The notes under the pieces were generated by a model, which saw only the letters and a program-made list of their open reading frames with translations, made no database searches and was not told the DNA's origin. DNA of 64,000 bases from NCBI GenBank assembly GCA_016218045.1, contig JACRFB010000063.1:68226-132225 (forward strand). The letters run 5' to 3'. A program made the position numbers and the translations under genes. The stretch's first letter is position 1, and each line of letters starts with the position of its first letter. This document shows, in pieces, positions 31,292-64,000 of the stretch. The stretch is from Ignavibacteriota bacterium (GTDB lineage: Bacteria > Bacteroidota > Ignavibacteria > SZUA-365).

Positions 31292-32218
31292 TTATTTCAC
31301 ACCCACATGCGAGAGCATTTCCTTGATGCCTCCAAGCGATCCCATGACACCGGACGCTTCATACGGCAGAAACACGACTTTCTGGGCACCATTTGCGATA
31401 TCCTTGAGCGACTCGAGGTATTTCATCGCGATGAGGTAGCTCGACGGATCACCGCCCACCGTCACTTTCAGCGATTCGGTGACGAGAGAAATTGCCTGCG
31501 CCTCGGCATTCGCGACACGCATACGCGCCTCTGCCTGACCCTCGGCCTGCAGGATGGCGGACTGCTTCTGCCCCTCGGCCGACACGATGGCCGACTGCTT
31601 CTCGCCCTCGGCACGAAGGATGGCCGACGACTTCTCGCCTTCGGCCTGCAGGATGGCGGCGCGGCGGTTCCGTTCGGCGGTCATCTGCTTTTCCATGGTG
31701 AGGCGGATATCTTCTGGCGGCAGAATGTTGCGCAGTTCGATGCGCATGACTTTGACGCCCCACTTGTCGGTGGCGCTGTCGAGGGATGCGCGGAGCTTGG
31801 TGTTGATCACTTCGCGGCCCGCGAGCGTGTGGTCGAGATCCATCTCGCCGATGACGGCGCGCAGGGCGCTGAGCGTGAGCTGCTGAATACCGCGTTGCAG
31901 TGTCGAAATTTCGTACACGGCTTTGACGGGATCGATGATCTGCCAGTACACGATGCAGTCCACTTCCATCGTCACGTTGTCGCGCGTGATCACCGGCTGC
32001 GGTTCGATGTCGGTGAGCTGTTCGCGAAGGTCGAGTGTCGCGCGCACGCTGTCGATGAAGGGCACGATGATGTTCAGACCGGAGATCGCGGTCTTGTGAT
32101 ATTTCCCGAGGCGCTCGATGATCTTGACCGAGGCCTGGCTGACCATCTTGATGCTGCTCAACGCCACGATGAAGGCGAAGAAGACAACAATCACGATGAT
32201 GACGGTGGCGGCTTCCAT
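31292..32218 (-). CDS. SPFH/band-7 (stomatin-like) protein
   Basis: Internal start MEAATVIIVIVVFF preceded by GGAGGA. SPFH domain. C-terminal AEGEKSSAILRAEGEKQSAIVSAEGQKQSAILQAEGQAEA repeats. Confidence 0.75.
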   Translation of the reverse strand: MEAATVIIVIVVFFAFIVALSSIKMVSQASVKIIERLGKYHKTAISGLNIIVPFIDSVRATLDLREQLTDIEPQPVITRDNVTMEVDCIVYWQIIDPVKAVYEISTLQRGIQQLTLSALRAVIGEMDLDHTLAGREVINTKLRASLDSATDKWGVKVMRIELRNILPPEDIRLTMEKQMTAERNRRAAILQAEGEKSSAILRAEGEKQSAIVSAEGQKQSAILQAEGQAEARMRVANAEAQAISLVTESLKVTVGGDPSSYLIAMKYLESLKDIANGAQKVVFLPYEASGVMGSLGGIKEMLSHVGVK

Positions 32219-32288
32219 GATTCCTCCGTGAGAAAATTCCGGGTTGCGAATGAGATGCGGGACGGGATAGGCGGGGAAGGGTGTGCGC

Positions 32289-32729
32289 TCACGTGCGCGC
32301 GACGATGAACTTTGCGCCGTCGAGACTCTGCACCGTGACGCGGGCCGAGACTTCGATGACGGAGCCGTCGGCGGAGCGGGCGGCCCAGTCCTGACCGTCA
32401 ACCAACACACGCCCGAGACTGTGTTCATTGTCGATGGTTTCGGTCACGATGCCCGCGCGCCCAAGCATGGCGTCGGCGTTGGTTTTCAGATCCGCGCCCG
32501 GCGAGGCGCGCATGAACACGTTTTTGAAGACCGTGCGCGAGAGGAAGACGAGCACGATGGACACGACCACAAAAACGAGGGTTTGAATCAGGGGATTGTG
32601 AACACCCGCGAGATCGAGCAGGCCTGCCAGTAGCGCGCCGACGCCAAACCATAACAGGACAAAGCCGGGTGTGACGATCTCGAGGATGAAGAACAGTACG
32701 GCGGCGGCGAACCACCAATAATACAGCAT
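32289..32729 (-). CDS. NfeD-family membrane protein (short form, OB-fold C-terminus)
   Basis: Internal start MLYYWWFAAAVLFFILEIVTPGFVLLWFGVGALLAG. NfeD typically precedes the SPFH gene. Confidence 0.6.
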   Translation of the reverse strand: MLYYWWFAAAVLFFILEIVTPGFVLLWFGVGALLAGLLDLAGVHNPLIQTLVFVVVSIVLVFLSRTVFKNVFMRASPGADLKTNADAMLGRAGIVTETIDNEHSLGRVLVDGQDWAARSADGSVIEVSARVTVQSLDGAKFIVART

Positions 32730-47100: not shown

Positions 47101-47242
47101 AGCGCACCAGACTCGTTTGTCTCTTTTTCCGCATTTTTCAACACTTTTTTCTTACATCCCGACCGTTGACAATTCAGCGACTGTTGGATAATTCATCGGG
47201 AATCCAAAGGGGATTTATAAACCGAATGAAAATATTCACATA

Positions 47243-52686: not shown

Positions 52687-54573
52687 ATGAGAACGAGAGC
52701 CACCGTTGTTGTGCTGCTGCTGATCCTCGTCGCCGGCTGCGCGAAAAAAGAGGAGAAGGCCGCGATTATCCCGATGAGGGACTTCTTCAAGAATCCTGAA
52801 AAATCGTATTACCAGGTCTCGCCCGGCGGCGGCTGGCTCGCCTTCACCGCGCCGTACGAAGCGCGCATGAACCTGTTTGTGCAGGCGGTGGGATCGAAGG
52901 ACGCGAAGCGCGTCACGTCCGTCACCGATCGCGACATCTCGAGCTACTTCTGGAAGGGCGACGACCGCCTCTGCTACGTGAAGGATTTTGGTGGCGATGA
53001 AAACTTCCACCTCTTTGCAGTGGACCGCGAGGGTACCGAGACCAAGGACCTCACACCGTTCCCCGGTGTGCGTGTCGAAGTGATCGACGCGCTCGAGGAC
53101 CACGCCACCGACATGCTCATCTCGATGAACAAGCGGAATCCCCAGATATTCGACGCGTATCGTGTCAACACCGCGACGGGTGAGATCACTCTGGTGCAGG
53201 AGAACCCGGGCTCGGTCACGCAGTGGGTGACCGATCACACAGGCGCGCTGCGTGTGGCCATTGCCACCGACGGCGTCAACAGCAGTCTATTGTACCGCGA
53301 TGGCGCGACGGGTCCGTTCAAGACCGTGCTCACGACCAATTTCAAGGAATCCTTCACGCCGATGTTCTTCACCTTCGACAACAAGAACATCTACGCCGCC
53401 TCGAATCTGAACAGAGACAAAGTGGCGATCGTCGAGTACGATCTCGCGGCGAACAAGGAGATCCGCGTGCTGTACGAGAATCCCGAGTACGACGCCGAGG
53501 GCCTGGGGTTCTCGCGTCTGCGCAAGGTGCTAACCGAGATCACCTACACCACTTGGAAATCGGAGCGGAAGATCCTTGACGCGCACACGCAGGACGTGTA
53601 CGATGCCATCGCGAAGGAAGCGCCCGATATGCTCGTGTATCTGATTTCGAACGACAAGGCCGAGACGAAGTACACCGTGCGCACCGTCAGCGACCGTTCG
53701 CTCGGCGCCTTCTATCTGTACGATGCCACGGCGAAGACACTCACGAAGCTCTCTGATCGTGCGCCCTGGCTCGACGCCTCGCAGATGGCCGAAATGAAGC
53801 CCATCAAATACACCTCGCGCGACGGTCTCACCATACACGGGTACCTCACGCTGCCGAAGGGATCCGACGGAAAGAATCTCCCGGTCGTGGTGAATCCGCA
53901 CGGCGGTCCGTGGGCGCGCGACGTGTGGGGCTTCCGTCCCGAGGTGCAGTTCCTCGCGAACCGCGGCTATGCAGTGCTGCAGATGAACTTCCGCGGATCC
54001 ACCGGCTACGGCAAGGACTTCTGGATGAAGTCGTTCAAGCAGTGGGGCCGCACGATGCAGGACGACATCAGCGATGGCGTGAAATGGCTGACCGACGAAG
54101 GCATCGCCGATCCGAAACGCATCGCCATCTACGGCGGCAGCTACGGCGGCTACGCCACACTCGCGGGCATCACCATTACGCCCGATCTCTACGCCGCGGC
54201 CATCGATTACGTGGGCGTGTCGAACATGTTCACGTTCATGAACACTATTCCGCCATACTGGGAGCCGTACCGCAAGATGTTCTACGAGATGGTGGGCGAT
54301 CCGAAGGCCGACAGTCTCATGCTCGCGGAAGTGTCGCCGGTATTCCTCGTCGACAAGATCAAGACGCCGCTGCTCGTCGCACAGGGCGCCAAGGATCCCC
54401 GCGTCAACGTGGAGGAATCGAATCAGATCGTGAACGCGCTGAAGAAAAAGGGCGTGGACGTGCAGTATATCGTGAAGGACAACGAAGGGCACGGGTTCCG
54501 CAACGAGGAGAATCGTTTTGAGTTCTACGATGCCATGGAGAAATTCCTCGATAAACATCTGATGGTGAAGTAG
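52687..54573 (+). CDS. S9-family serine peptidase (prolyl oligopeptidase/dipeptidyl aminopeptidase-like) lipoprotein
   Basis: Lipobox LVAGCAKK. N-terminal beta-propeller. C-terminal alpha/beta hydrolase with GGSYGGY nucleophile elbow, catalytic D and H. Confidence 0.8.
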   Translation: MRTRATVVVLLLILVAGCAKKEEKAAIIPMRDFFKNPEKSYYQVSPGGGWLAFTAPYEARMNLFVQAVGSKDAKRVTSVTDRDISSYFWKGDDRLCYVKDFGGDENFHLFAVDREGTETKDLTPFPGVRVEVIDALEDHATDMLISMNKRNPQIFDAYRVNTATGEITLVQENPGSVTQWVTDHTGALRVAIATDGVNSSLLYRDGATGPFKTVLTTNFKESFTPMFFTFDNKNIYAASNLNRDKVAIVEYDLAANKEIRVLYENPEYDAEGLGFSRLRKVLTEITYTTWKSERKILDAHTQDVYDAIAKEAPDMLVYLISNDKAETKYTVRTVSDRSLGAFYLYDATAKTLTKLSDRAPWLDASQMAEMKPIKYTSRDGLTIHGYLTLPKGSDGKNLPVVVNPHGGPWARDVWGFRPEVQFLANRGYAVLQMNFRGSTGYGKDFWMKSFKQWGRTMQDDISDGVKWLTDEGIADPKRIAIYGGSYGGYATLAGITITPDLYAAAIDYVGVSNMFTFMNTIPPYWEPYRKMFYEMVGDPKADSLMLAEVSPVFLVDKIKTPLLVAQGAKDPRVNVEESNQIVNALKKKGVDVQYIVKDNEGHGFRNEENRFEFYDAMEKFLDKHLMVK

Positions 54574-54605
54574 CTAGTAGATGGTAGATAGTAGGTTCTG
54601 TGAGG

Positions 54606-54638
54606 CCATGCCGTCCGAGAGGGCGGCATGGTTTTTTT
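54606..54638 (+). terminator. Rho-independent terminator after the S9 peptidase gene
   Basis: CCATGCCG-tccgagagg-CGGCATGG followed by TTTTTTT. Confidence 0.6.
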
Positions 54639-54744: not shown

Positions 54745-56460
54745 ATGCGTGGTCGTGCTGTGTGGTGCGGAGTGTGTGTGGGTGTCATGCTGCTGTGTGC
54801 AGGCGCGGTGCGGGCGCAGGACAGTTTCTTCGACCAGGCGTTGCGCGGGCCGCGCGGGGTGTGGTCCACAGGCATGGGACTGTCGGGCGTCGCGCGCGCG
54901 ACACCCGTGGTGGGCTTCTCGTACAATCCCGCGGCGTTTGCGCACGCGACACGGACCACTGCGACGCTGTTCCGCGCGCCGACATACTCGTGCTGCGATC
55001 CGATCGTGCTCCGCACAGCTTCGGTGGTGACTCCCATGCCGCTGCTTGGGGGTGTTATAGGATTGGAGGTACTTGACGACAACTTTGGAGAAGTGTATTT
55101 CGGCAGCGATGGGAACCTCGGCCTGTATGCCGACTCACGGATTATCGGCGTCGCCCTCGGATTCGGCACATCTCTCGGCGAAGACGTGGCGATAGGCGCG
55201 GCCTTCCGCGTGTTGGAAAACACCATAGAAGCTGATCGACAGGAAAGTGGCCTGCACAGCACTGCTCATCACATCGGAATGAGCATTGGGGTGCAGTACA
55301 ATCCCGACATCCTCGACAGACGGCTGCGGGCCGGTCTGGCGATCCTGGAAATGGGTCCGGAAATCGTGTACATCGACGAGGCGCAAGCGGACCCCGCGCC
55401 GACCTCGCTGCGTTTGGGTCTGGACGCGGAGCTTGTCGACGATGGCACCGTGTCGCTTCCGCTTACAGTGGAAGTGTCGAAGGGACTCATCAAGCGGGGG
55501 CACGAATATCGTGCACGTCCCTCCTGGGAGGCGCTGTTCAGCGACTGGAATGCGGTGCCGCGCGACATGGTGTTGCATCTCGGAATCGGATTCCTGTGGC
55601 GGCCACTCGCGCTCGGAAACGGGTGGACGTTCGCAACAGGCGTGGCCGTCGGCAATGCGAGTGTGGGACCGGAATATCCCACCCTCAATTTTCGCAACCA
55701 GTTCACAGCGTCGTACACCACTTCAGTAGAAAAAGACGGATACAGCGTGGAAGTGGGTGTGGCGACAAGCTGGCATCGATTGCCGATATACAATTACTCG
55801 GGGATAGAACCGCCCACGCTGCCGAACGACATGTTCGAGGCGACGGTGTCGGTGCCGTGGGCGCCGGGTGCCGCCACGATCGCCGCTGCTCCCGCCGTGG
55901 CGCTCGAGCACATCACACTATCCCTCGGCGCCGGTTTCCGCTCCTATAGCGGATGGGCCGCGCCCGCTGAGGGCATCGTGTATCGCGACGCGCTCGACCT
56001 GGAAGGCGACGCCTCCTTTGCGCTGTCGCCACACAGCGCCGTGGCCTTGACGCTGCAGCACACACGCGGCGACGTCGACGTAATGTTTCCGATGAACGAG
56101 ACAGATCCGCCCGTCGTGTACGACACGTACCGGCATCGCGGCTGGACCGTGCTTTCGTCGTATCGGCTGCATCCGCTCGAGCAGTTCCGCGCGCTCTTCA
56201 TCGGCGCGGGGGCCGGCATCGTCTACGACCAGCATGGCACCTCGAACCGGCTGCGCATGCTCGCTATGCGGAAGGCGCTGCATCCCGCCTTCGCCGTGGA
56301 GGCCGGTGTCGACTGGCCCGCGGCGGGACACCTTGTGCTCACTCCCCACGTGCGCTGGACACTCGTGCCCGGAAAAATCGAACACGGCGAACCACTGCGC
56401 CTCGGCGCGTATCACGCACTTTCTTTCGGTGTGCGTGTGGGATGGCGGGAGGGAGAGTAG
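54745..56460 (+). CDS. Hypothetical secreted/outer-membrane protein upstream of giant T9SS cargo gene
   Basis: Internal start MRGRAVWCGVCVGVMLLCAGAVRAQ (signal peptide). Alternating hydrophobic patterns suggest a beta-barrel. No catalytic motifs. Confidence 0.3.
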   Translation: MRGRAVWCGVCVGVMLLCAGAVRAQDSFFDQALRGPRGVWSTGMGLSGVARATPVVGFSYNPAAFAHATRTTATLFRAPTYSCCDPIVLRTASVVTPMPLLGGVIGLEVLDDNFGEVYFGSDGNLGLYADSRIIGVALGFGTSLGEDVAIGAAFRVLENTIEADRQESGLHSTAHHIGMSIGVQYNPDILDRRLRAGLAILEMGPEIVYIDEAQADPAPTSLRLGLDAELVDDGTVSLPLTVEVSKGLIKRGHEYRARPSWEALFSDWNAVPRDMVLHLGIGFLWRPLALGNGWTFATGVAVGNASVGPEYPTLNFRNQFTASYTTSVEKDGYSVEVGVATSWHRLPIYNYSGIEPPTLPNDMFEATVSVPWAPGAATIAAAPAVALEHITLSLGAGFRSYSGWAAPAEGIVYRDALDLEGDASFALSPHSAVALTLQHTRGDVDVMFPMNETDPPVVYDTYRHRGWTVLSSYRLHPLEQFRALFIGAGAGIVYDQHGTSNRLRMLAMRKALHPAFAVEAGVDWPAAGHLVLTPHVRWTLVPGKIEHGEPLRLGAYHALSFGVRVGWREGE

Positions 56461-56580
56461 GGAGTAGGGAGTGGGGAGTGGGGTAGAGGGGAAGAGTGGG
56501 AGACGGGTAGAGGGGGACAGCGGGAGAGTGGGAGAGCGGGACAGCGGGAGCAGGGATTGGCGGCGTGGTGATTTGCCAGT
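56461..56580 (+). repeat. G/A-rich low-complexity repeat block (GGGAG-type units, G-quadruplex-capable)
   Basis: gggagtagggagtggggagtggggtagaggggaag...cgggacagcgggagcaggg, more than 12 GGG runs in 120 nt. Contains the 14-mer cgggacagcgggag, which recurs inverted at 63434-63447. Confidence 0.6.
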
Positions 56581-56701
56581 CAATATTGGCATAAGGAGCA
56601 ATGACCACGAGTGTCAAGGTCTTGTGGATTTATTCCCGATCTGTTCCGACTGAAATCCGTATATTTCTCCACCGAAACATTTCGCTCCTCCAGGATTTCG
56701 T

Positions 56702-59700
56702 ATGGCATTGACGGGATCTGTTGGTACCATCTCACACGCACGCAGGCTGTACTGCACAGGTAAAAACAGCACTCACGCAGCGCTGATTGCCATTGTAACC
56801 TGGATGATGTTCCCCGGCGCTGCCGCCGGACAGGATGTGCTGCTTCGCCGCACGAGTCCGGACCCGTACTTCGAGGAGAACCGCGGTCAGATCATGGACG
56901 AACACGGAAAGACGCGCCGCGATGTGCTCTTCGCCCAGCGTGACGGCGGTGCTTCTTTGTACCTGACGCGCGGCGGCTTCGAGTATGTGTTCGCGCGCGT
57001 GGAAAATCCTGATGCACCTGTCAGCGAAGCCACGGGCAGAGCCATGAGTGACCGTGATTCTCACCCGGTGATAACCGCGTACCAACGCGTGGACATGCGC
57101 TTCCGCGATCCATCGCCCTCCGTTCGTGTGCGAGGGATTGAAGAAAAGGACTACCTGCTCCACTATTACACCGTGGGTGCCGGACCGGACGCGGAGACCG
57201 TGCGCACCTTCGCGGGTGTCGTGTACGAGAACGTGTACCGCGGCATCGATCTCGTCCTGCGCGCGGAGCCGCGCGGGATAAAATACCACTGGGTTGTGCA
57301 TCCAGGCGCGTCAGTCGGCGACATCCGTGTATTCTGGTCTGGAGCGGACCGGCTGCAGCAGGAGCCGGATGGGGGACTGCGTGTGATCAGCACACTCGGC
57401 GAACTGTCGGAGGCACCGCCCGTTGCCTGGCAGGACACACCGACGGGACGACGGCCCGTGCAGGTTTCATCTCGTGTGGTTGGAATGGACATACATCTCG
57501 ACTGCGGGGACTACGATGCTGAACGCAAACTCACCGTTGATCCGCGTGTTATCTGGGCGACCTATTACGGTGGTGATCTGATTGATCGAGCGTGCGCGGT
57601 TGATACCGATGCCGATGACAACGTGGTTGTAGTTGGCGAAACAACAAGTCTCGCGGCCATCAGTACACCGGGCACATTTCAGGCAGTTCACGCCGGTGCC
57701 TGGGACGGTTTTATGGCAAAGTTCGACAGTGCCGGGAATCGACTTTGGAGTACCTACGTCGGTGGCGCAGCATCCGATAATCTTGTCAGTGTGTCCTGCG
57801 ATGGAAGTGGCATCATGGCCGCTGGCTCCACAACGAGTGCGGGCATGGCGACGAGTGGTGTACATCAGACAACACTGGGGGGGATCGCCGACATACTGCT
57901 CCTTCGGTTTAGTGCTGCCGGTGTGCGCCTGTGGGCGACCTATTACGGAGGCCCCGGGGCCGAGAGCCCGAGAGCCGTATCGCCGGGAGGCGGCGGGCGG
58001 GTGCTTGTCTCCGCCAGAACAAACAGCGGCTCGGGCATAGAAATCGGTGGGAGCTGGGGTGGCTATTCGGGAGGCACCGACGGCGCTGTGGCGGTTTTCA
58101 ACGCCAGCGGTGCTTTGCTTTGGGGGCGCTACATCGGCGGTCCCGATGAGGATCAATGCCACGGCATCACAACAGACGGTGCGCGCATTTTTGTCGCCGG
58201 TTCCACCCGGAGCACCACGGGGCTCGCAACACCGGGCGCCTTTCTCACAACGCAGCAAGGCGACTGGGACATGTTCCTGGCGTGTGTCGCGTACAACGGG
58301 ACAATCGACTGGGCAACATATTACGGCGGATCCGGGCTCGAATCCGATATAGCCAGTGGCATCCGGTACACAGGCGGCAACCGGATCATCATCGGAGGAA
58401 AAACAACGAGCACCTCCGGTATGACCACAACCGGCGTATTTCAGGAGACGCATCAAGGCGGGAGCGCCGATGGATTTCTCGCCGCCTTCGACAGCGCAGG
58501 GCATCGACACTGGGGTACCTACATCGGGAGCGCAGGGTGGGAAAGCATCACCGGACTCGATGTCGACGCAGAAGGCGCCATCATGATCTTCGGTCAGGCC
58601 ACGGCCACTTCGAGTCTGGCGAACTTCAACAATGTGCATCAGTCCACCCTCGCCACAGATGGACTATTTGTCGGGCGTGTGGAGGGAGAGGGGACGGATC
58701 TGCGCTGGTGTACCTTTTACGGCGGCTCACAGACATGGCCGGAAATGTGGGGTGCCTCGAACGGGTGTGTCGATCTCCGGGGTAATGTGTACGTCTGCGG
58801 GACCACAAACAGCCAGACGCTCATCGCCTACGGCAACCCGCATCAAGGCGCATTTGGCGGCGGATCCAGCGACGGCTGTCTTGCGAAATTTCTTGGAGGG
58901 AAGAATCGCATTGTGACCAGAGACGGTGCGCCTACGTATTGTGAGGGGGATACTCTCATCGTGCACTACGACCTCGCCGGCGTGTATGGTGATCACAATA
59001 TGTTCCATGCGCAGTTGTCGGATTCGACCGGGAACTTCGGTGCGCCAGTCATCATCGGTTCGGTGAAATCATGGATGCAGGATTCCATCATTGCGGTGAT
59101 TCCCGTCGGCACTCCGGGTGGTAGTGCGTACCGCATCCGTGTCGTGTCGACGAATCCCAGACTCGCAGGAACCGAGACGAGGGCCTTCCGTATTGTTCCG
59201 CTCCCTGTTGCCATTGTTGCACCTGCGGGCACCGTGTCGATCTGCGAAGGGCAGAGCTTGATATTACGTGCTGACAGTGCGATGAATTGCACGTACGTGT
59301 GGGAAGAGCAGACACGCGGTATGGAGGGCGTGGGTCCATCGCTACTCGTCACACGCACGGGAAAGTATCGCGTGGTGGTGACGAACACAGGCGGCTGCCG
59401 TGCCTGGTCGCCGTGGACGGAGGTAGTCGCTTCACCGCGTCCGCTCGCGACTATCACACCGTGGGATGTGCAAGGAGTCTGTGAAGGGGACAGCGTCGTT
59501 CTGTCAGGACCCGACAGCACAGGGTACACATTTGAGTGGTCCACCGGCGAAACAACACGTGTGCTCCGGGTGAGCAAGCCGGGACTCTATCGCCTTGTGG
59601 TGCGGAATGCCGCGGGGTGTTCGGACACGTCGGCACCCGTGCGCGTTGTCGTGTATCCGTTGCCGGTGTTGTCGGTGGCGGGGCGCGGGCGTGCCTGTCA

Positions 59701-62700
59701 GTACACTGTGTGGTCGTACCGAGTGACGAAACCCGCCGGGACGTCGCTCGTGTGGACGGCCACGGGCGGGGCGGTGCTGCAGGCACAGGGCGACAGCGCG
59801 GTGGTGCAGTGGACGTTGCCGGGGATGCGCATGGTGCAGGTGACATGCCGTGTGGACTCGAGCGGCTGCACGTCGACGGCAACGCTGCCGGTGCAAGTGG
59901 ATGCATTCGTTCCACCCGCGATCGAGGCGGATCCGAAACACATCTGCCGCGGCAGCGAACTGCGGCTGAAGGTGCAGCGGGGCTACGCGCGTGTTGCATG
60001 GAACACAGGGGCGACGACGGACGAGATCGTTGTCCGCACCCCCGGCATGTACCGCGTGCGTGTGGAGACGTCGGACGGCTGCGCGGGCGAGGACTCGGTG
60101 CGCATCACGGTTGTCGATCCACCCAATGCACAGGCGCCAACCGACACGACGATCTGCGGCGAGTCGGAGGTGCTGCTTACGGGTGATGCACGTGACGGCA
60201 CACCGCCGTACGGCTACCGGTGGATCGGTGAGAATGTGACAGACGAGTACGCGCGCACGACCACGGCCCGTCCGTCAACGGCGGGGATCTATGTGCTGGA
60301 GGTGACGGACGCGAACGGTTGCACGGGGCGCGACACACTGCGTGTGCAGAAGCGTGCGGCGCCGCCGGTGGGGATCCGCGCGCTGGGTGCGCTGCGTTTC
60401 TGTCTGGGCGACAGCGTGACTCTGGAGGCGGATGCGGGCTTTGTGCGTTATGAGTGGAGCGACGGACAGCGGGGCCGTCGCGTCGTGATCCGCCGTGCGG
60501 GCATGTATCATGTGCTTGCCACGGATACGTCGGGCTGCACGGCGCGGTCGGATCCGCTCACGGTGGAGGTGAAGGCGATCGCCGTGAACATCACTGCTCT
60601 GGGCCCGTTGCGTTTCTGCGCGGGCGACAGCGTGGTGTTGCGCGTGGAGGGCGCGCCCGCGCGTGTGCGCTGGAACACGGGCGATAGTACACGATACCTC
60701 GTCGTCCGCAGCACGGGCACGTACTGGGCGCGGGGCTGGGACACGTTCGGCTGCGAGGGGGCCTCGCTGCCGCTGCAGGTGACAGTGAATCCGCTGCCAC
60801 GTGTTGCGATCGGCGGTCCGGCGAGTGTGTGCGCGGGCACAGTTGGCAGGCACTGGCTGCGCGAGGTGCGGGGATTGCGCGTACTCTGGCGCATCGAGAA
60901 CGGGACGCTGCTCACCGGCGAGAATGCGGACACGGTGGACGTGCGCTGGTCCGTCGCGGGGAACGGCCGCCTCGTGCTCACGTGTACGGACACAACAACG
61001 GGCTGCACGGACAGCACGATTGCACCCATCATCATAGGGACCTCGCTCACTCCCGTGATCGTCGGTCCAACGGCCATCTGCGCGGGCGACACGGCGGTGT
61101 TCGACGCGGGGGACGGGTACGCGTTCTACACGTGGCGTAACGAGGCGGACAGCATTGTCGGCACCAGATCACAACTCCGCGTTACAACCGCGGGCCGTTA
61201 CCGCGTGTTTGTGCGTGATGCGGGTACCTGCGAGGGGGATGCCTCGCACAGACTCATCGTTCATCCGAAGCCCGGTGTATCGATCGTCGGAGCCGCCTCG
61301 TTCTGCACGGGCGACAGTGTACTGCTCTCCGCATCGGGAACATTTATCCAGTATGTCTGGCGGAATGAATCGGATACTGTTGTCGGAAATACACCGACGT
61401 ACACCGTTCGGACACCAGGTCTGTACACACTCGCCGTGACAGACGGGAACGGGTGTACAGCCCGCTCCACGCCGCACGCAGTAAGCGAACTCGCACACCC
61501 CGTCGCGGCGATCGCGGGACCTACGAGCGCGTGCAGCGGAACGGTGCAGAGGTATGGAACACCGCCTGGGACGGGCGTCGCATATCGATGGAGCGTGCTG
61601 AATGGCACGACGCTGTCCGCCTCCGATGCGGACACGTTCACCGTGCGCTGGGACGCGCCCGGGACGGGTCGTGTCGTGCTCACTGTCACGAACGCTGCGT
61701 GCAGCGCAAGCGACACACTGGACTTGACGGTGGGATCCTCGCTCACACCTTCCATCGCGGGCAGATCACGTATCTGCGCGGGCGACTCGGCCCTGCTCGA
61801 TGCGGGCGCGGGCTACAGGAGTTACCTGTGGAGATTGCCGAACGGCGACAGCGCAGACACACGGTCGATCCGCATCGCGGCAACGGGTGTGTACACAGTG
61901 ACCGTGTACGACGAGGGCGGGTGTTCAGGATCGGCGCGGCATCTCCTGCGTGTGGATGTGCTCCCCGCACCCGCGATCGCGGGTCCACAGGAGATCTGCG
62001 CGGGCGACACGGCGGTGCTCGATGCCGGTGTGTTCGCAGGTGTGTACACCTGGCGTGACGCAATGGGGACCATGCTCGGCGTGCAGCGCACACTCGCCGT
62101 CACACAGACGGGAGTGTTCACAGTAACAGTCACCGACACGAACAGTTGCACGGGCTCGTCGCCACCGCACGCGCTTCTTGTGCATCCGCGTCCATCAAAA
62201 CCCGTCGTCACCCTCCGCGGCGACACCCTCGCCACCGTGGCGGGATACGCGTACCGCTGGTATCGCAACGACACACTCATCGCGGGCGCCGCATCCGACA
62301 CACACATCGCGGCCTCACCCGGCTGGTATCACGTGTCGATCACCGACACTCACGGCTGCACGAACGAGGCGGATCCCATCGAATACACCGGCGCGGCGCG
62401 TGTGGCCACGGCGCACATCATCCTTCCATTCCTCGAGGCAGCTCCCGGCGAGCGCGTCGAGATCCCGGTCGTGATCGCCGCCTCCACGCACCTCGATGCG
62501 GCGGACGTGCGCTCGTTCCGTGCCACACTGCGCTACCACGCCGGCGTGCTCGCACCGATGGGTTCCACGCCGCCAGGTGTGTTATCCGGTGCCGAACGTC
62601 TCATCCCGTTCACGGCCGATACCGCGTCCCGTCCGCTGTCGCCCGGGCCCGTGTGGCCGCCGGTGGCGACACTCGTGTTCCGCGCGACACTCGGATCCGT

Positions 62701-63091
62701 GTCACAGACGCCGCTGACACTTGAGGACATGAACTTCGGCGCGACCGACGTCCGCGTGACGGTGCAGCCGGGCGGCTTCCGGCTCCTCGTGTGCAGAGAG
62801 GGAGGGGAGCGGTTGTTCTCGGACAGCGGGCGGCTTTCTATCGGACAGAACAGTCCGAATCCATTCAACGCGCAGACGACGATCGAGTACGAGACCATCG
62901 AGAACGGTCCGGTGTTCCTCGCCGTGTACGATCTGCTCGGCCGCGAGACCGCCGTGCTTGTCGACGCGCCGCTTGTGCCCGGCCGGCGCCGCGTACTCTT
63001 CGACGCGCAGGCCCTTCCCTCCGGACAGTACATCGCCGTGCTCCGCAGCGGCAGCGGTGTGCGCACGATGCGGATGGTTGTTGCGAAGTGA
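56702..63091 (+). CDS. Giant (2129 aa) T9SS-secreted surface protein: N-terminal SBBP-type beta-propeller repeats + about 14 tandem Ig-like two-Cys repeats + Por_Secre_tail C-terminal domain
   Basis: YYGG...D.A..VD.D.DNVVVVGET.S...... repeats (SBBP, PF06739-like). About 80-aa repeats with a conserved C.GDS..L.A......Y.W......G.Y.V.VTD.NGC..S pattern. C-terminus GQNSPNPFNAQTTIEYE...GQYIAVLRSG...MRMVVAK. Confidence 0.7.
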   Translation: MALTGSVGTISHARRLYCTGKNSTHAALIAIVTWMMFPGAAAGQDVLLRRTSPDPYFEENRGQIMDEHGKTRRDVLFAQRDGGASLYLTRGGFEYVFARVENPDAPVSEATGRAMSDRDSHPVITAYQRVDMRFRDPSPSVRVRGIEEKDYLLHYYTVGAGPDAETVRTFAGVVYENVYRGIDLVLRAEPRGIKYHWVVHPGASVGDIRVFWSGADRLQQEPDGGLRVISTLGELSEAPPVAWQDTPTGRRPVQVSSRVVGMDIHLDCGDYDAERKLTVDPRVIWATYYGGDLIDRACAVDTDADDNVVVVGETTSLAAISTPGTFQAVHAGAWDGFMAKFDSAGNRLWSTYVGGAASDNLVSVSCDGSGIMAAGSTTSAGMATSGVHQTTLGGIADILLLRFSAAGVRLWATYYGGPGAESPRAVSPGGGGRVLVSARTNSGSGIEIGGSWGGYSGGTDGAVAVFNASGALLWGRYIGGPDEDQCHGITTDGARIFVAGSTRSTTGLATPGAFLTTQQGDWDMFLACVAYNGTIDWATYYGGSGLESDIASGIRYTGGNRIIIGGKTTSTSGMTTTGVFQETHQGGSADGFLAAFDSAGHRHWGTYIGSAGWESITGLDVDAEGAIMIFGQATATSSLANFNNVHQSTLATDGLFVGRVEGEGTDLRWCTFYGGSQTWPEMWGASNGCVDLRGNVYVCGTTNSQTLIAYGNPHQGAFGGGSSDGCLAKFLGGKNRIVTRDGAPTYCEGDTLIVHYDLAGVYGDHNMFHAQLSDSTGNFGAPVIIGSVKSWMQDSIIAVIPVGTPGGSAYRIRVVSTNPRLAGTETRAFRIVPLPVAIVAPAGTVSICEGQSLILRADSAMNCTYVWEEQTRGMEGVGPSLLVTRTGKYRVVVTNTGGCRAWSPWTEVVASPRPLATITPWDVQGVCEGDSVVLSGPDSTGYTFEWSTGETTRVLRVSKPGLYRLVVRNAAGCSDTSAPVRVVVYPLPVLSVAGRGRACQYTVWSYRVTKPAGTSLVWTATGGAVLQAQGDSAVVQWTLPGMRMVQVTCRVDSSGCTSTATLPVQVDAFVPPAIEADPKHICRGSELRLKVQRGYARVAWNTGATTDEIVVRTPGMYRVRVETSDGCAGEDSVRITVVDPPNAQAPTDTTICGESEVLLTGDARDGTPPYGYRWIGENVTDEYARTTTARPSTAGIYVLEVTDANGCTGRDTLRVQKRAAPPVGIRALGALRFCLGDSVTLEADAGFVRYEWSDGQRGRRVVIRRAGMYHVLATDTSGCTARSDPLTVEVKAIAVNITALGPLRFCAGDSVVLRVEGAPARVRWNTGDSTRYLVVRSTGTYWARGWDTFGCEGASLPLQVTVNPLPRVAIGGPASVCAGTVGRHWLREVRGLRVLWRIENGTLLTGENADTVDVRWSVAGNGRLVLTCTDTTTGCTDSTIAPIIIGTSLTPVIVGPTAICAGDTAVFDAGDGYAFYTWRNEADSIVGTRSQLRVTTAGRYRVFVRDAGTCEGDASHRLIVHPKPGVSIVGAASFCTGDSVLLSASGTFIQYVWRNESDTVVGNTPTYTVRTPGLYTLAVTDGNGCTARSTPHAVSELAHPVAAIAGPTSACSGTVQRYGTPPGTGVAYRWSVLNGTTLSASDADTFTVRWDAPGTGRVVLTVTNAACSASDTLDLTVGSSLTPSIAGRSRICAGDSALLDAGAGYRSYLWRLPNGDSADTRSIRIAATGVYTVTVYDEGGCSGSARHLLRVDVLPAPAIAGPQEICAGDTAVLDAGVFAGVYTWRDAMGTMLGVQRTLAVTQTGVFTVTVTDTNSCTGSSPPHALLVHPRPSKPVVTLRGDTLATVAGYAYRWYRNDTLIAGAASDTHIAASPGWYHVSITDTHGCTNEADPIEYTGAARVATAHIILPFLEAAPGERVEIPVVIAASTHLDAADVRSFRATLRYHAGVLAPMGSTPPGVLSGAERLIPFTADTASRPLSPGPVWPPVATLVFRATLGSVSQTPLTLEDMNFGATDVRVTVQPGGFRLLVCREGGERLFSDSGRLSIGQNSPNPFNAQTTIEYETIENGPVFLAVYDLLGRETAVLVDAPLVPGRRRVLFDAQALPSGQYIAVLRSGSGVRTMRMVVAK

Positions 63092-63108
63092 GGCGCGGGG
63101 AACGGCTT

Positions 63109-63212
63109 GACGATTGGACGATCAGATGATTAGACGATCAGACGATTGGACGATCAGACGATTAGACGATCAGACGATTGGACGATCAGACGATTGGACG
63201 ATCAGACCATCC
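63109..63212. repeat. Tandem 8-bp microsatellite (GACGATYR)x12, with a 16/32-bp higher-order periodicity
   Basis: gacgattg gacgatca gatgatta gacgatca gacgattg gacgatca gacgatta gacgatca gacgattg gacgatca gacgattg gacgatca, then a decaying copy gaccatcc. Confidence 0.85.
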
Positions 63213-63376
63213 GCTTCCTCCGGCGATCCAAGCCGCGTATGCGCGATGCGCGAGAAAACTCCGACAGGGCGACCGGCGGTCGCCCGACACCGCCGCGAAC
63301 CACGCATGCAACACCGCACAAAACAGATCAGTCACCCACGTCCGGAACGGGAGAGGGCCGGGGTGAGGGTGCGCGT

Positions 63377-63505
63377 CCCGCTCTCCCGTCGCGCTTCGAC
63401 TCCGCTCAGCGAGACACTATTTCGTTGTTCCGCTCCCGCTGTCCCGTCGCGCTTCGACAAGCTCAGCGAGACACAGGGTCGTGGTCCCGCTGTCCCGCTG
63501 TCCCG
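63377..63505. repeat. C-rich repeat block: two about 42-bp direct repeats plus (CCCGCTGT)n, inverse-complementary to the 56461-56580 G-rich block
   Basis: cccgtcgcgcttcgac-NN-gctcagcgagacac occurs twice. ctcccgctgtcccg at 63434-63447 is the exact reverse complement of 56539-56552. cccgctgtcccgctgtcccg at 63486-63505. Confidence 0.6.
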
Positions 63506-63531
63506 AGTTCCCGCTACACATCCGAACGAAA

Positions 63532-64000
63532 TCACTGCACGATGAATCGACGCAGGTAGCGCTCAGGTCGGTCACCATCAGGAAGGTCGATGGTGATGAG
63601 GAAGAGGCCCGGCGTGAGGTGATGGGTGGATAAATTGTGGAGACGGTGCTCGCCAGGCTCGAACTCGAGGTGGTTCTGTTGCATCACACGACCAAGCACG
63701 TCGGTCACGGTCACGAGCGCACGACACGCGTGCTGCGACGCGGGCAGGTACACGGGCAGAACACCATCACCGCCGTTTGCGTGCAGGGGATTCGGATAGA
63801 CGGATCCGATACTCAGACCTTCGGGTGTGACGGCATCGACGGACGTTGCCACATTGTATCCGCTTCCTGTCAGCGCGATAGAGACAACCGGCGTCAATTG
63901 ATCAAGCGTCAGGCGCAGGTAGGCCTGGCGCATGCCGTTATTGCGGGGAACAAAGGTGACAGGCACAATAATCGAATCGCCCGGCCGTAGTGTGACAGGC
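63532..64000 (-). CDS. C-terminal end (T9SS sorting domain) of a second secreted protein, convergent to the giant gene; 5' part outside window
   Basis: Open frame continues to the window edge. SVYPNPLHANGG...ALVTVTDVLGRVM...PGLFLITIDLP... is Por_Secre_tail-like. Confidence 0.5.
   Translation of the reverse strand, partial: PVTLRPGDSIIVPVTFVPRNNGMRQAYLRLTLDQLTPVVSIALTGSGYNVATSVDAVTPEGLSIGSVYPNPLHANGGDGVLPVYLPASQHACRALVTVTDVLGRVMQQNHLEFEPGEHRLHNLSTHHLTPGLFLITIDLPDGDRPERYLRRFIVQ

Follow-up and report, generated by a model that had tools for sequence, protein, structure and literature searches.

G-rich SSRs with units of 6–9 nt have been described in detail as the heptamers GGGAATC of Xanthomonas and GGGGA(C/T)T of Nostoc (Rehm et al., 2015; PMC4692102). 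[quoted passage not shown] They are transcribed and in vitro fold as quadruplexes; they show no link to surface genes or mobile elements, and no regulatory role was found for them (PMC4692102). A heptamer of another kind, TAACTGA, is found shortly before start codons in Beggiatoaceae, Cyanobacteria, and Bacteroidetes (MacGregor, 2015; PMC4679880). Here we analyzed a 64-kb window from an Ignavibacteriota MAG (the whole stretch of DNA under study, to which all our reading of the source genome is confined), in which a first-pass annotation had reported a giant gene exactly bracketed by inverted low-complexity blocks, G-rich upstream (block A) and C-rich downstream (block B). We consider it likely that the blocks are two separate members of a single family of 7–8-nt SSR arrays (unit GGGASAGY) that lie in non-coding sequence at gene 3′ ends, and that the giant gene stands between them only because it fills the space between two gene ends.

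On its left side the locus includes a peptidase S9 gene, whose stop (54571–54573) is overlapped by a plus-strand heptamer array, (AGTAGAT)3.7, at 54569–54594, identified with TRF and in the sequence; a textbook intrinsic terminator follows at about 54605–54638. Next on the plus strand comes a gene for a PorV/PorQ-like outer-membrane protein of 570 aa (54748–56460; Pfam PorV, 28.5 bits), which NCBI carries as a 557-aa protein (MBI5648580.1, locus tag HY962_16740; 100% identity to the NCBI version, P0014). Its score against NCBIfam PorV_fam, 70.9 bits, is under the cutoff of 90, and a scan of one-genome-per-species contigs with the protein found no relative. The giant gene (56702–63091, plus strand) codes for 2129 aa, in which Pfam recognizes DUF7948, SBBP beta-propeller repeats, CHU_C-type Ig, PKD, and a T9SS type A C-terminal sorting domain; against TIGR04183 it scores 42.8 bits, over the cutoff of 23. 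Its product is a secreted adhesin-like T9SS protein, and a homologue search with the last 450 aa gave a best match of only 41% identity. A convergent gene on the minus strand, cut by the end of the window and seen in translation as its 3′ part (63532–64000, stop at 63532–63534), has a weak T9SS C-terminal sorting-domain signal (TIGR04183, 19.8 bits, not reaching the cutoff of 23), and a homologue search found none for it. Neither Rfam, at gathering thresholds, nor a tRNA scan gave any match in the whole window.

Block A (56447–56555, plus strand) is an imperfect tandem array of 109 nt, for which TRF gave periods of 7, 8, 14, and 24. The G-rich low-complexity run reported at the upstream stop is indeed present, and it starts inside the ORF, 14 nt before its end, overlapping the stop of the PorV-like gene (56458–56460) and supplying its last four codons (R-E-G-E) together with the TAG. 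The units shift along the array, GAGTAGG 7-mers coming first and GGGASAGY 8-mers later, with GGGGAGT also present, and they are degenerate (74–81% unit matches in TRF). With 61% G and 6% C, the block includes the 78-nt stretch that has the strongest G>C skew in the window; its 16 G3+ tracts form one continuous motif, and the G4Hunter mean, a check the first-pass annotation had proposed, is 1.72 over 56437–56536. The end of block A is separated from the ATG of the giant gene by 146 nt, and this spacer contains a small plus-strand hairpin (56574–56591) of 7 bp here and 9 bp in the other haplotype of the species. Half of the eight haplotype differences in a 320-nt stretch fall inside this hairpin, and all four are pairing-compatible. 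A fold of 56440–56710 (z = −2.57) represents the purine tract pairing with the pyrimidine-rich spacer and was not built upon, and a small ORF at 56603–56711, with a Shine-Dalgarno-like AAGGAG seen by eye, was discarded because a 1-nt indel in relatives breaks its frame.

Past the stop of the giant gene (63091), the gene’s own trailing array, (GACGATTGGACGATCA)6.2 or equivalently (GACGATYR)12, whose octamer unit is unrelated to that of the blocks, begins after 17 nt (63109–63207, plus strand) and is followed by 170 nt of unique sequence. Block B (63375–63515, minus strand, from TRF and the sequence) then spans 284–424 nt past that stop, in good agreement with the distance of about 290 nt first reported, and ends 16 nt from the stop of the minus-strand gene. 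There are blocks on both sides of the giant gene, as claimed, but they do not bracket it exactly, with a 146-nt gap on the left, an extra array plus 170 nt on the right, and block B abutting its neighbor’s stop. Nor can block B be called a C-rich mirror of block A: its plus strand is 40% C and 26% G, against 61% G and 6% C, the minus strand being the G-rich side, and it reaches the top 0.4% of the window for C>G on the plus strand. Its octamers, GGGACAGC/GGGAGAGC, number only five or six and are interrupted by an unrelated 30-nt unit present twice (63388–63417 and 63446–63474) inside a 58-nt tandem duplication of 89% identity. The C-side repeat noted near 63486–63505 was recovered as (GTCCCGCT)2.8 at 63484–63505, a site also entered for the minus strand as (GGGACAGC)2.8. 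The minus strand of the block has eight G3+ tracts and one four-tract motif, GGGAACTCGGGACAGCGGGACAGCGGG, and its G4Hunter score falls under the threshold of 1.5. The idea that the blocks are quadruplex elements flanking the giant gene survives at the level of the motifs, with the 16 tracts of block A and the single four-tract motif of block B, but loses its tie to that gene, as each array trails the stop of a different one.

The 30-nt units of block B have no further copy in the window (≤3 mismatches) and zero matches in the JGI metagenomes; a REP-like reading of them was dropped because they fold no better than shuffles (z from +0.37 to −1.28), and the 3′ flank of the minus-strand gene, taken whole, likewise folds no better than shuffles (z = −0.16). 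A plus-strand G-tract motif, GGGAGAGGGCCGGGGTGAGGG (63349–63369), marks the left edge of the block, and ACGGGAGAG within this motif pairs with CTCTCCCGT in block B as a local hairpin. Farther toward the giant gene, a GC-rich hairpin, GGGCGACC-GGC-GGTCGCCC (63267–63285), is followed on the minus strand by UGUCGGAGUUUUCUC; it is possibly a weak terminator of the minus-strand gene, in which case block B would lie in the 3′ UTR of that gene. An ORF over this downstream spacer (63146–63559) was judged spurious, its translation being a low-complexity, Arg-rich product of the arrays.

Taken along the locus, four consecutive gene ends carry arrays, which start −4, −14, +17, and +16 nt from the end of the stop codon. 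Arrays of the GGGASAGY type number two in the 64-kb window and occupy adjacent intergenic regions. Both blocks are G-rich on the sense strand of the gene that they trail, the PorV-like gene (+) for block A and the convergent gene (−) for block B, and it is because of this convergent gene arrangement that they stand in opposite orientation and share, as an inverted match of 15 nt, two units. In this window two cases bear on the sense-after-stop orientation (chance 0.25), and a cross-phylum orientation test using crude longest-ORF gene calls gave 14 sense against 10 antisense arrays, which is not significant (p = 0.54). By eye, we recognized textbook hairpin-plus-T-run terminators at eight other free gene ends in the window and no textbook terminator close to the three array-bearing T9SS-related genes; in the interval from the PorV-like gene to the giant gene a terminator was not found.

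The exact inverted match is real, but it measures 15 nt and not 14, and its coordinates had been placed 1–2 nt off. Its left arm, CGGGACAGCGGGAGC, comprises two octamer units (56537–56551, plus strand) and its right arm lies at 63432–63446 on the minus strand. The first-pass annotation regarded a 14-nt match as unlikely by chance in 64 kb; this did not hold, as 35 distinct exact inverted matches in the window reach 14 nt or more, and 15 of these reach 15 nt or more. Counted as k-mer pairs, we observed 56 of 14 nt and 23 of 15 nt, versus 9–28 and 0–11, respectively, in five mononucleotide shuffles. When up to two mismatches were allowed, GGGASAGYGGGASAGY was found eight times in the window, seven of them in the two blocks, versus 0.55 expected, a number that none of 100 shuffles reached; the same kind of count for the shared 14-mer gave 11 matches versus 0.94 expected. 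The non-random part is the octamer unit common to both blocks, and not the length of the match.

Similar arrays are found far beyond this locus. In one-genome-per-species contigs, GGGASAGYGGGASAGYGGGA had at least 120 matches, versus about 17 expected from our own uniform-composition estimate, and the matches listed span Cyanobacteria, Gemmatimonadota, Acidobacteriota, Planctomycetota, Bacteroidota, Balneolales, Rhodothermia, Chloroflexota, Actinomycetota, and Myxococcota. Several genomes among the matches listed carry such arrays on two or more contigs, and another array (with a 5–9-nt period, or a 14/16-nt double) lies within 400 nt in 81 of the 121 arrays among them. GACGATYR arrays, with the unit that trails the giant gene itself, are equally widespread (at least 120 metagenome contigs). 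The neighbors of the arrays in other phyla are housekeeping genes (aminoacyl-tRNA synthetase, MazG, SDR, LptC), which ruled out a link of the arrays to T9SS cargo genes in other genomes, and a search of the literature for the octamer strings returned only irrelevant matches. According to the first-pass annotation, its proposals would be refuted if the motif proved widespread and unconnected with the giant gene; this is in essence what we found, across genomes rather than within the source genome.

The closest known class is that of the G-rich quadruplex-prone SSRs of Rehm et al. (2015), and the blocks are the same kind of element with another unit. Both have head-to-tail 7–8-nt units with a G3+ tract, a non-coding, stop-proximal position on the coding strand and inverted copies, and neither is tied to mobile elements or to one gene class; at least four G-tracts with loops of 1–7 nt are found in block A (16 tracts) and, as GGGAACTCGGGACAGCGGGACAGCGGG, on the minus strand of block B. 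The differences are that the unit here is mostly the octamer GGGASAGY, along with GAGTAGG and GGGGAGT, and not GGGNATC, that block A has 16 tracts compared with a preference for four units, that the units are degenerate, and that the host is an Ignavibacteriota MAG. Cyanobacterial STRR and TAACTGA repeats are also intergenic short-period arrays of many unit types, with different units side by side, but they differ in unit and period, and TAACTGA precedes starts while the arrays described here follow stops. Block B resembles REP/BIME elements in being intergenic, between convergent genes, and in having short repeated units, yet its 30-nt units neither fold as palindromes beyond shuffles nor occur in further copies. 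Unlike a slipped-strand contingency locus, block A is degenerate and constant in length, and it follows a stop, with the next start codon 146 nt away. That length is identical in seven related assemblies, with one G/A substitution, but since these assemblies are 96–99% identical nearby, its constancy says little either way. In this species slippage is indicated by the (AGTAGAT) array that trails the peptidase gene, in which two haplotypes are exactly one 7-nt unit apart.

If the blocks are ordinary members of an SSR family, as we favor, the arrays would have originated by replication slippage or local tandem duplication and later decayed by point mutation. Any effect would most likely be local, exerted by a G-rich tract, prone to quadruplex formation, in the 3′ UTR or the non-template DNA of the upstream gene, and the tract would act on 3′-end stability or read-through at genes without a nearby textbook terminator. 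It is rather unlikely, in our view, that the arrays are instead selected cis-elements working as strand-specific transcription insulators. In such a scheme the G-rich sense RNA would fold as a quadruplex and protect the 3′ end, and the C-rich complement, present only in transcripts entering antisense, would serve to load Rho and so halt convergent or antisense transcription. Several observations fit this: both G-rich arrays lie no more than 16 nt from a stop, on the sense strand, they include the skew maximum of the window (block A) and one of its most C>G-skewed regions (block B), three genes lack a nearby textbook terminator, a like strand and position bias is known for G-rich heptamers (PMC4692102), and identical octamer arrays recur across phyla. 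Nevertheless, the orientation bias is not significant across phyla, block B is only 40% C and broken by other sequence, and Rehm et al. found no regulatory role (PMC4692102). Moreover, GACGATYR and AGTAGAT arrays, which are not G-rich, occupy the same positions, which suggests a position effect of slippage and not a sequence-specific function.

The remaining explanations all give the giant gene a special status. We regard as very unlikely that the blocks are a functional pair belonging to this gene, which would pair over 6.9 kb in a co-transcript of the PorV-like and giant genes, or in the DNA, and thereby loop it out or regulate it. The inverted arms (34 nt at 82%, 20 nt at 90%, and 15 nt at 100% complementarity) and the lack of a terminator found between the two genes are congruent with pairing, as is the duplex score of block B, which at −113 kcal/mol pairs with block A better than any other site in the window. 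The case for the long-range stem proposed earlier is nonetheless weak, the margin being small: unrelated sites in the window reach −106 to −109 kcal/mol over a background of −72 ± 11, since a purine-rich strand that can form G-U pairs will anneal nearly everywhere. In addition, 15-nt exact inverted matches are common in the window, block B lies 284–424 nt past the stop, behind another array and next to its neighbor’s stop, and elsewhere the same arrays stand singly beside unrelated genes. It is even more improbable that the blocks are inverted-end remnants of a mobile or invertible 6.9-kb segment that brought in, or flips, the giant gene. Like the terminal inverted repeats of IS elements and transposons, related sequence does flank in inverted orientation one large, strain-variable surface-protein gene. 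However, the arms are low-complexity tandem arrays with no defined element ends or unique terminus, and block A overlaps the coding end of its neighbor. The bracketed segment shows no GC discontinuity and contains no transposase or recombinase. Nor did one turn up in relatives, where the genes called over the 10 kb preceding the PorV-like gene are those for ferredoxin, GcvH, a methyltransferase, BNR/sortilin, FBPase, and peptidase S9. The junction of PorV-like gene, block A, and giant gene has the same arrangement and orientation in all six related assemblies that span it, with the giant gene always after block A; at this upstream junction, which is the part that the comparison covers, neither an orientation variant nor a presence/absence variant of the giant gene was seen. 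Block B itself was not recovered from any relative. The insertion or inversion relic suggested by the first-pass annotation thus finds no backing, and a phase-variable segment would be expected in more than one orientation. Least probable of all is that block A acts as a quadruplex of the pilE type, which would diversify the giant surface protein by setting off recombination. This G-tract-rich element does lie 146 nt upstream of a gene with mosaic divergence between strains (patches of 60–76% identity in a 96–99% background), but the PorV-like gene, on the other side of block A, has diverged in the same mosaic fashion, a search of the rest of the 64 kb for silent donor copies of parts of the giant gene was negative (blastn and tblastn gave one 46-nt match, at chance level), and arrays of this class are found beside housekeeping genes.

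The apparent bracket can be read as two convergent gene ends with the same kind of repeat, and it does not argue that the gene is mobile, invertible, or under special regulation. More widely, the point to be drawn is a modest one; the arrays may be no more than slippage products. We think it quite doubtful, although worth stating, that the (GGGAGAGT)n and (GGGACAGC)n arrays at gene ends in at least 10 phyla, clustered with 7–8-nt arrays, form a convergently maintained, functional class of stop-proximal elements. If this were true, a quadruplex in the sense RNA together with an antisense Rho loading site could make a possible strand-specific insulator, replacing hairpin terminators at three consecutive T9SS-related genes. 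Stop-adjacent arrays of G-rich 7–8-nt units had been detailed before only for the heptamers of Xanthomonas and Nostoc, and they are now seen as octamers in Ignavibacteriota and in many other phyla.

The G-rich run reported by the first-pass annotation at the stop of the gene upstream of the giant gene is real, and TRF delimits it as an array at 56447-56555 (block A) with periods of 7, 8, 14, and 24. It reads GGGAGGGAGAGTA GGGAGTA GGGAGT GGGGAGT GGGGTAGA GGGGAAGAGT GGGAGAC GGGTAGA and continues with GGGGGACAGC GGGAGAGT GGGAGAGC GGGACAGC GGGAGCA GGG. With 61% G and 6% C, it has the strongest G>C skew of any 78-nt stretch in the window, and the G4 prediction proposed at that stage identified it as the longest G4Hunter-positive region. 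Its host gene (54748-56460, plus strand) codes for a PorV/PorQ-like outer-membrane protein, 100% identical over 557 aa to MBI5648580.1 (NCBI; locus tag HY962_16740), which is encoded on a contig of 143,698 nt. Block A begins within the PorV-like ORF, encoding its last four codons and stop. The protein ends in ...GVRVGW-REGE*, with REGE and TAG derived from the array (56446-56460). Such an ending suggests that the array overwrote an original stop, formerly located after a typical beta-barrel aromatic C-terminal residue.

The second array, block B (63375-63515), lies behind the convergent minus-strand gene (stop at 63532-63534; weak sorting-domain signal). On the minus strand it starts 16 nt past that stop, as TGA-16 nt-AGCGGGAA CTCGGGAC AGCGGGAC AGCGGGAC..., and holds five or six octamers. 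It also has a tandem duplication of 58 nt (copies 89% identical), built around a 30-nt unit unrelated to the octamers. Neither the window nor the JGI metagenomes yielded further copies of the 30-nt units, which fold no better than shuffles. Contrary to what had been proposed, block B is not a C-rich reverse complement of block A: its composition is 40% C and 26% G, and the unrelated unit interrupts it. The exact inverted match between the blocks is present, although it measures 15 nt rather than 14 (56537-56551/63432-63446), and there are longer imperfect arms (34 nt with 82% and 20 nt with 90% complementarity). The argument that such a match is unlikely by chance does not hold, as 35 distinct exact inverted matches in the window are 14 nt or longer and 15 are 15 nt or longer, and shuffled sequence gives k-mer pair counts of similar order. 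By contrast, GGGASAGYGGGASAGY, allowing up to two mismatches, occurs eight times in the window against 0.55 expected, seven of them inside the two blocks. The non-random signal is the common repeat unit, not the exact inverted match. Blocks A and B are tandem arrays that share one unit family; each lies beside a stop and is G-rich on the sense strand of that gene. They are mutually inverted because their host genes are convergent.

The giant gene (56702-63091, plus strand; 2129 aa with DUF7948, SBBP propeller repeats, CHU_C-type Ig, PKD, and a T9SS type A sorting domain), separated from its neighbors by spacers of 241 nt upstream and 440 nt downstream, has an array of its own with a different unit, (GACGATTGGACGATCA)6.2, which begins 17 nt beyond its stop and forms a (GACGATYR)n octamer array at 63109-63207. 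The peptidase S9 gene (52687-54573), the first of the right-hand 12 kb, carries (AGTAGAT)3.7 at 54569-54594, overlapping the stop and followed by a textbook terminator; this heptamer array places TAG in all three frames inside 25 nt. The peptidase, PorV-like, giant, and convergent genes are therefore four consecutive gene ends with stop-proximal 7-8-nt arrays, which we found at none of the ~40 other gene ends in the window. Judged by eye, eight of these others have ordinary hairpin-plus-T-run terminators, and the three T9SS-related genes have none nearby, except that a weak one may serve the minus-strand gene from the far side of block B (63267-63285). No terminator was detected between the PorV/PorQ-like gene and the T9SS cargo gene directly downstream. 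Pairs of an adhesin and a dedicated outer-membrane partner, such as SprB and SprF, are known from gliding Bacteroidota, and the pair at 54748-63091 recalls this arrangement. Across the whole window, which has a G+C content of 61% and comes from a metagenome-assembled genome ("Ignavibacteriae bacterium"), scans returned no tRNA genes and no Rfam families at gathering score. A spacer flanked by two minus-strand genes holds two 19-nt direct repeats, CGACCGTTGACAATTCAG and CGACTGTTGGATAATTCA (47160-47195), a possible operator-like site. A 33-nt-period tandem repeat (31539-31657; 3.6 copies, 80% matches) within the minus-strand ORF 31292-32428 probably gives its protein an 11-residue repeat.

The blocks had also been read as relics of an insertion or inversion of the bracketed DNA. 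The latter is a single adhesin-like ORF without transposase or recombinase domains, GC content is smooth over both junctions, and no transposase or recombinase gene was among those called in the upstream 10 kb of relatives. In the synteny comparison, which covers the upstream side (none of the seven related assemblies, from Logan, ENA, and NCBI GCA_041908345.1, extends as far as the giant gene's 3′ end), the order PorV-like gene, block A, giant gene was kept in all six assemblies spanning the junction, and across all seven block A varied by a single G/A substitution and not in length. Close relatives of the convergent neighbor or of the giant C-terminus were absent from the protein collection, and silent copies of giant-gene segments from the rest of the window. 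Features of mobile or invertible elements are absent from the locus. Regarding a long-range stem, block B is indeed the best RNA duplex partner of block A (-113 kcal/mol), but unrelated sites come close (-106 to -109 kcal/mol; background -72 ± 11). It is improbable, in our view, that the blocks act as strand-specific insulators, with Rho loading at their C-rich complement in antisense or convergent transcripts.

The related assemblies are 90-96% identical overall, most 100-nt windows reaching 96-99%, with divergent patches. In the peptidase heptamer array, the two haplotypes (the window and L007 versus L001, L002, and L004) are exactly one 7-nt unit apart, a length difference that reads as a slippage signature. 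Between block A and the giant gene, a small hairpin (56574-56591; 11825-11846 in L001) holds four of the eight haplotype differences of a 320-nt stretch, all four preserving or lengthening the pairing (7 bp, UGCCAGU/AUUGGCA, versus 9 bp, UUUGCUGGU/ACUGGCAAA, with G-U pairs used); it may represent a conserved RNA hairpin, or else a small patch of recombination. Mosaic divergence affects the PorV-like gene (54939-55238) and, in the giant gene, the N-terminal part with the SBBP propeller (57338-58754). In the comparison with L001-L007, identity falls in patches to 60-76% among strains otherwise 96-99% identical, and 57870-58754 gave no blastn alignment. This divergence suggests diversifying selection or recombination in surface-exposed parts.

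Scanning one genome per species for GGGASAGYGGGASAGYGGGA returned at least 120 matches, against ~17 expected by our estimate for uniform random sequence. Nearly all those listed are pure (GGGAGAGT)n, (GGGAGAGC)n, (GGGACAGC)n, or (GGGACAGT)n arrays, from Cyanobacteria, Gemmatimonadota, Acidobacteriota, Planctomycetota, Bacteroidota, Balneolales, Rubrivirga, Chloroflexota, Actinomycetota, Myxococcota, and others, several genomes having them on more than one contig. Among the matches listed, 81 of 121 arrays have a second array (5-9-nt period or 14/16-nt double) within 400 nt. In other phyla a near-complementary C-rich array often follows the G-rich one within ~50-100 nt, and the pairs (e.g., L036, L040, L043, L052, L092, L114, and L122) form extended imperfect hairpins; the partner of (GGGACAGC)n in Gemmatimonadales is (GACCCGCT)n. 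GACGATYR arrays, found on at least 120 metagenome contigs, likewise lie next to other arrays, often GGATATCG, GGCCATCG, or GGCGATCA (L128-L207). The genes beside the G-rich octamer arrays in Gemmatimonadales and Bacteroidales code for prolyl-tRNA synthetase, a class II aminoacyl-tRNA synthetase, a DUF5915 protein, MazG, a short-chain dehydrogenase, and LptC. Arrays like blocks A and B are thus common in other genomes, next to unrelated genes, and are not tied to surface proteins; the association with the giant gene is due to gene orientation. By crude longest-ORF calls, stop-adjacent arrays among the matches listed were G-rich on the sense strand in 14 cases and on the antisense in 10 (p = 0.54), and therefore a sense-after-stop rule is not established for these octamers.

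The closest known class is that of the G-rich heptamers of Xanthomonas (GGGAATC) and Nostoc (GGGGA(C/T)T), which are enriched in non-coding DNA, give rise to transcripts, and fold into quadruplexes in vitro, with no association with surface genes or mobile elements and no known function (Rehm et al., 2015; PMC4692102). Blocks A and B resemble them in architecture and placement but differ in unit sequence, in their mostly 8-nt period, and in host phylum. The cyanobacterial STRR and the TAACTGA heptamers, the latter known from Beggiatoaceae, Cyanobacteria, and Bacteroidetes (PMC4679880), are elements of this kind built from other units. The blocks are real and their explanation is ordinary. They would have arisen through replication slippage and local duplication and decayed since, and their common unit may reflect a preference across the genome, as in other genomes that have several copies. 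Any effect would be confined to the upstream gene's 3′ end, via a quadruplex-prone or purine-rich 3′ untranslated tract. Blocks A and B extend the known, poorly understood stop-proximal G-rich simple repeats to a new phylum and to an octamer unit.
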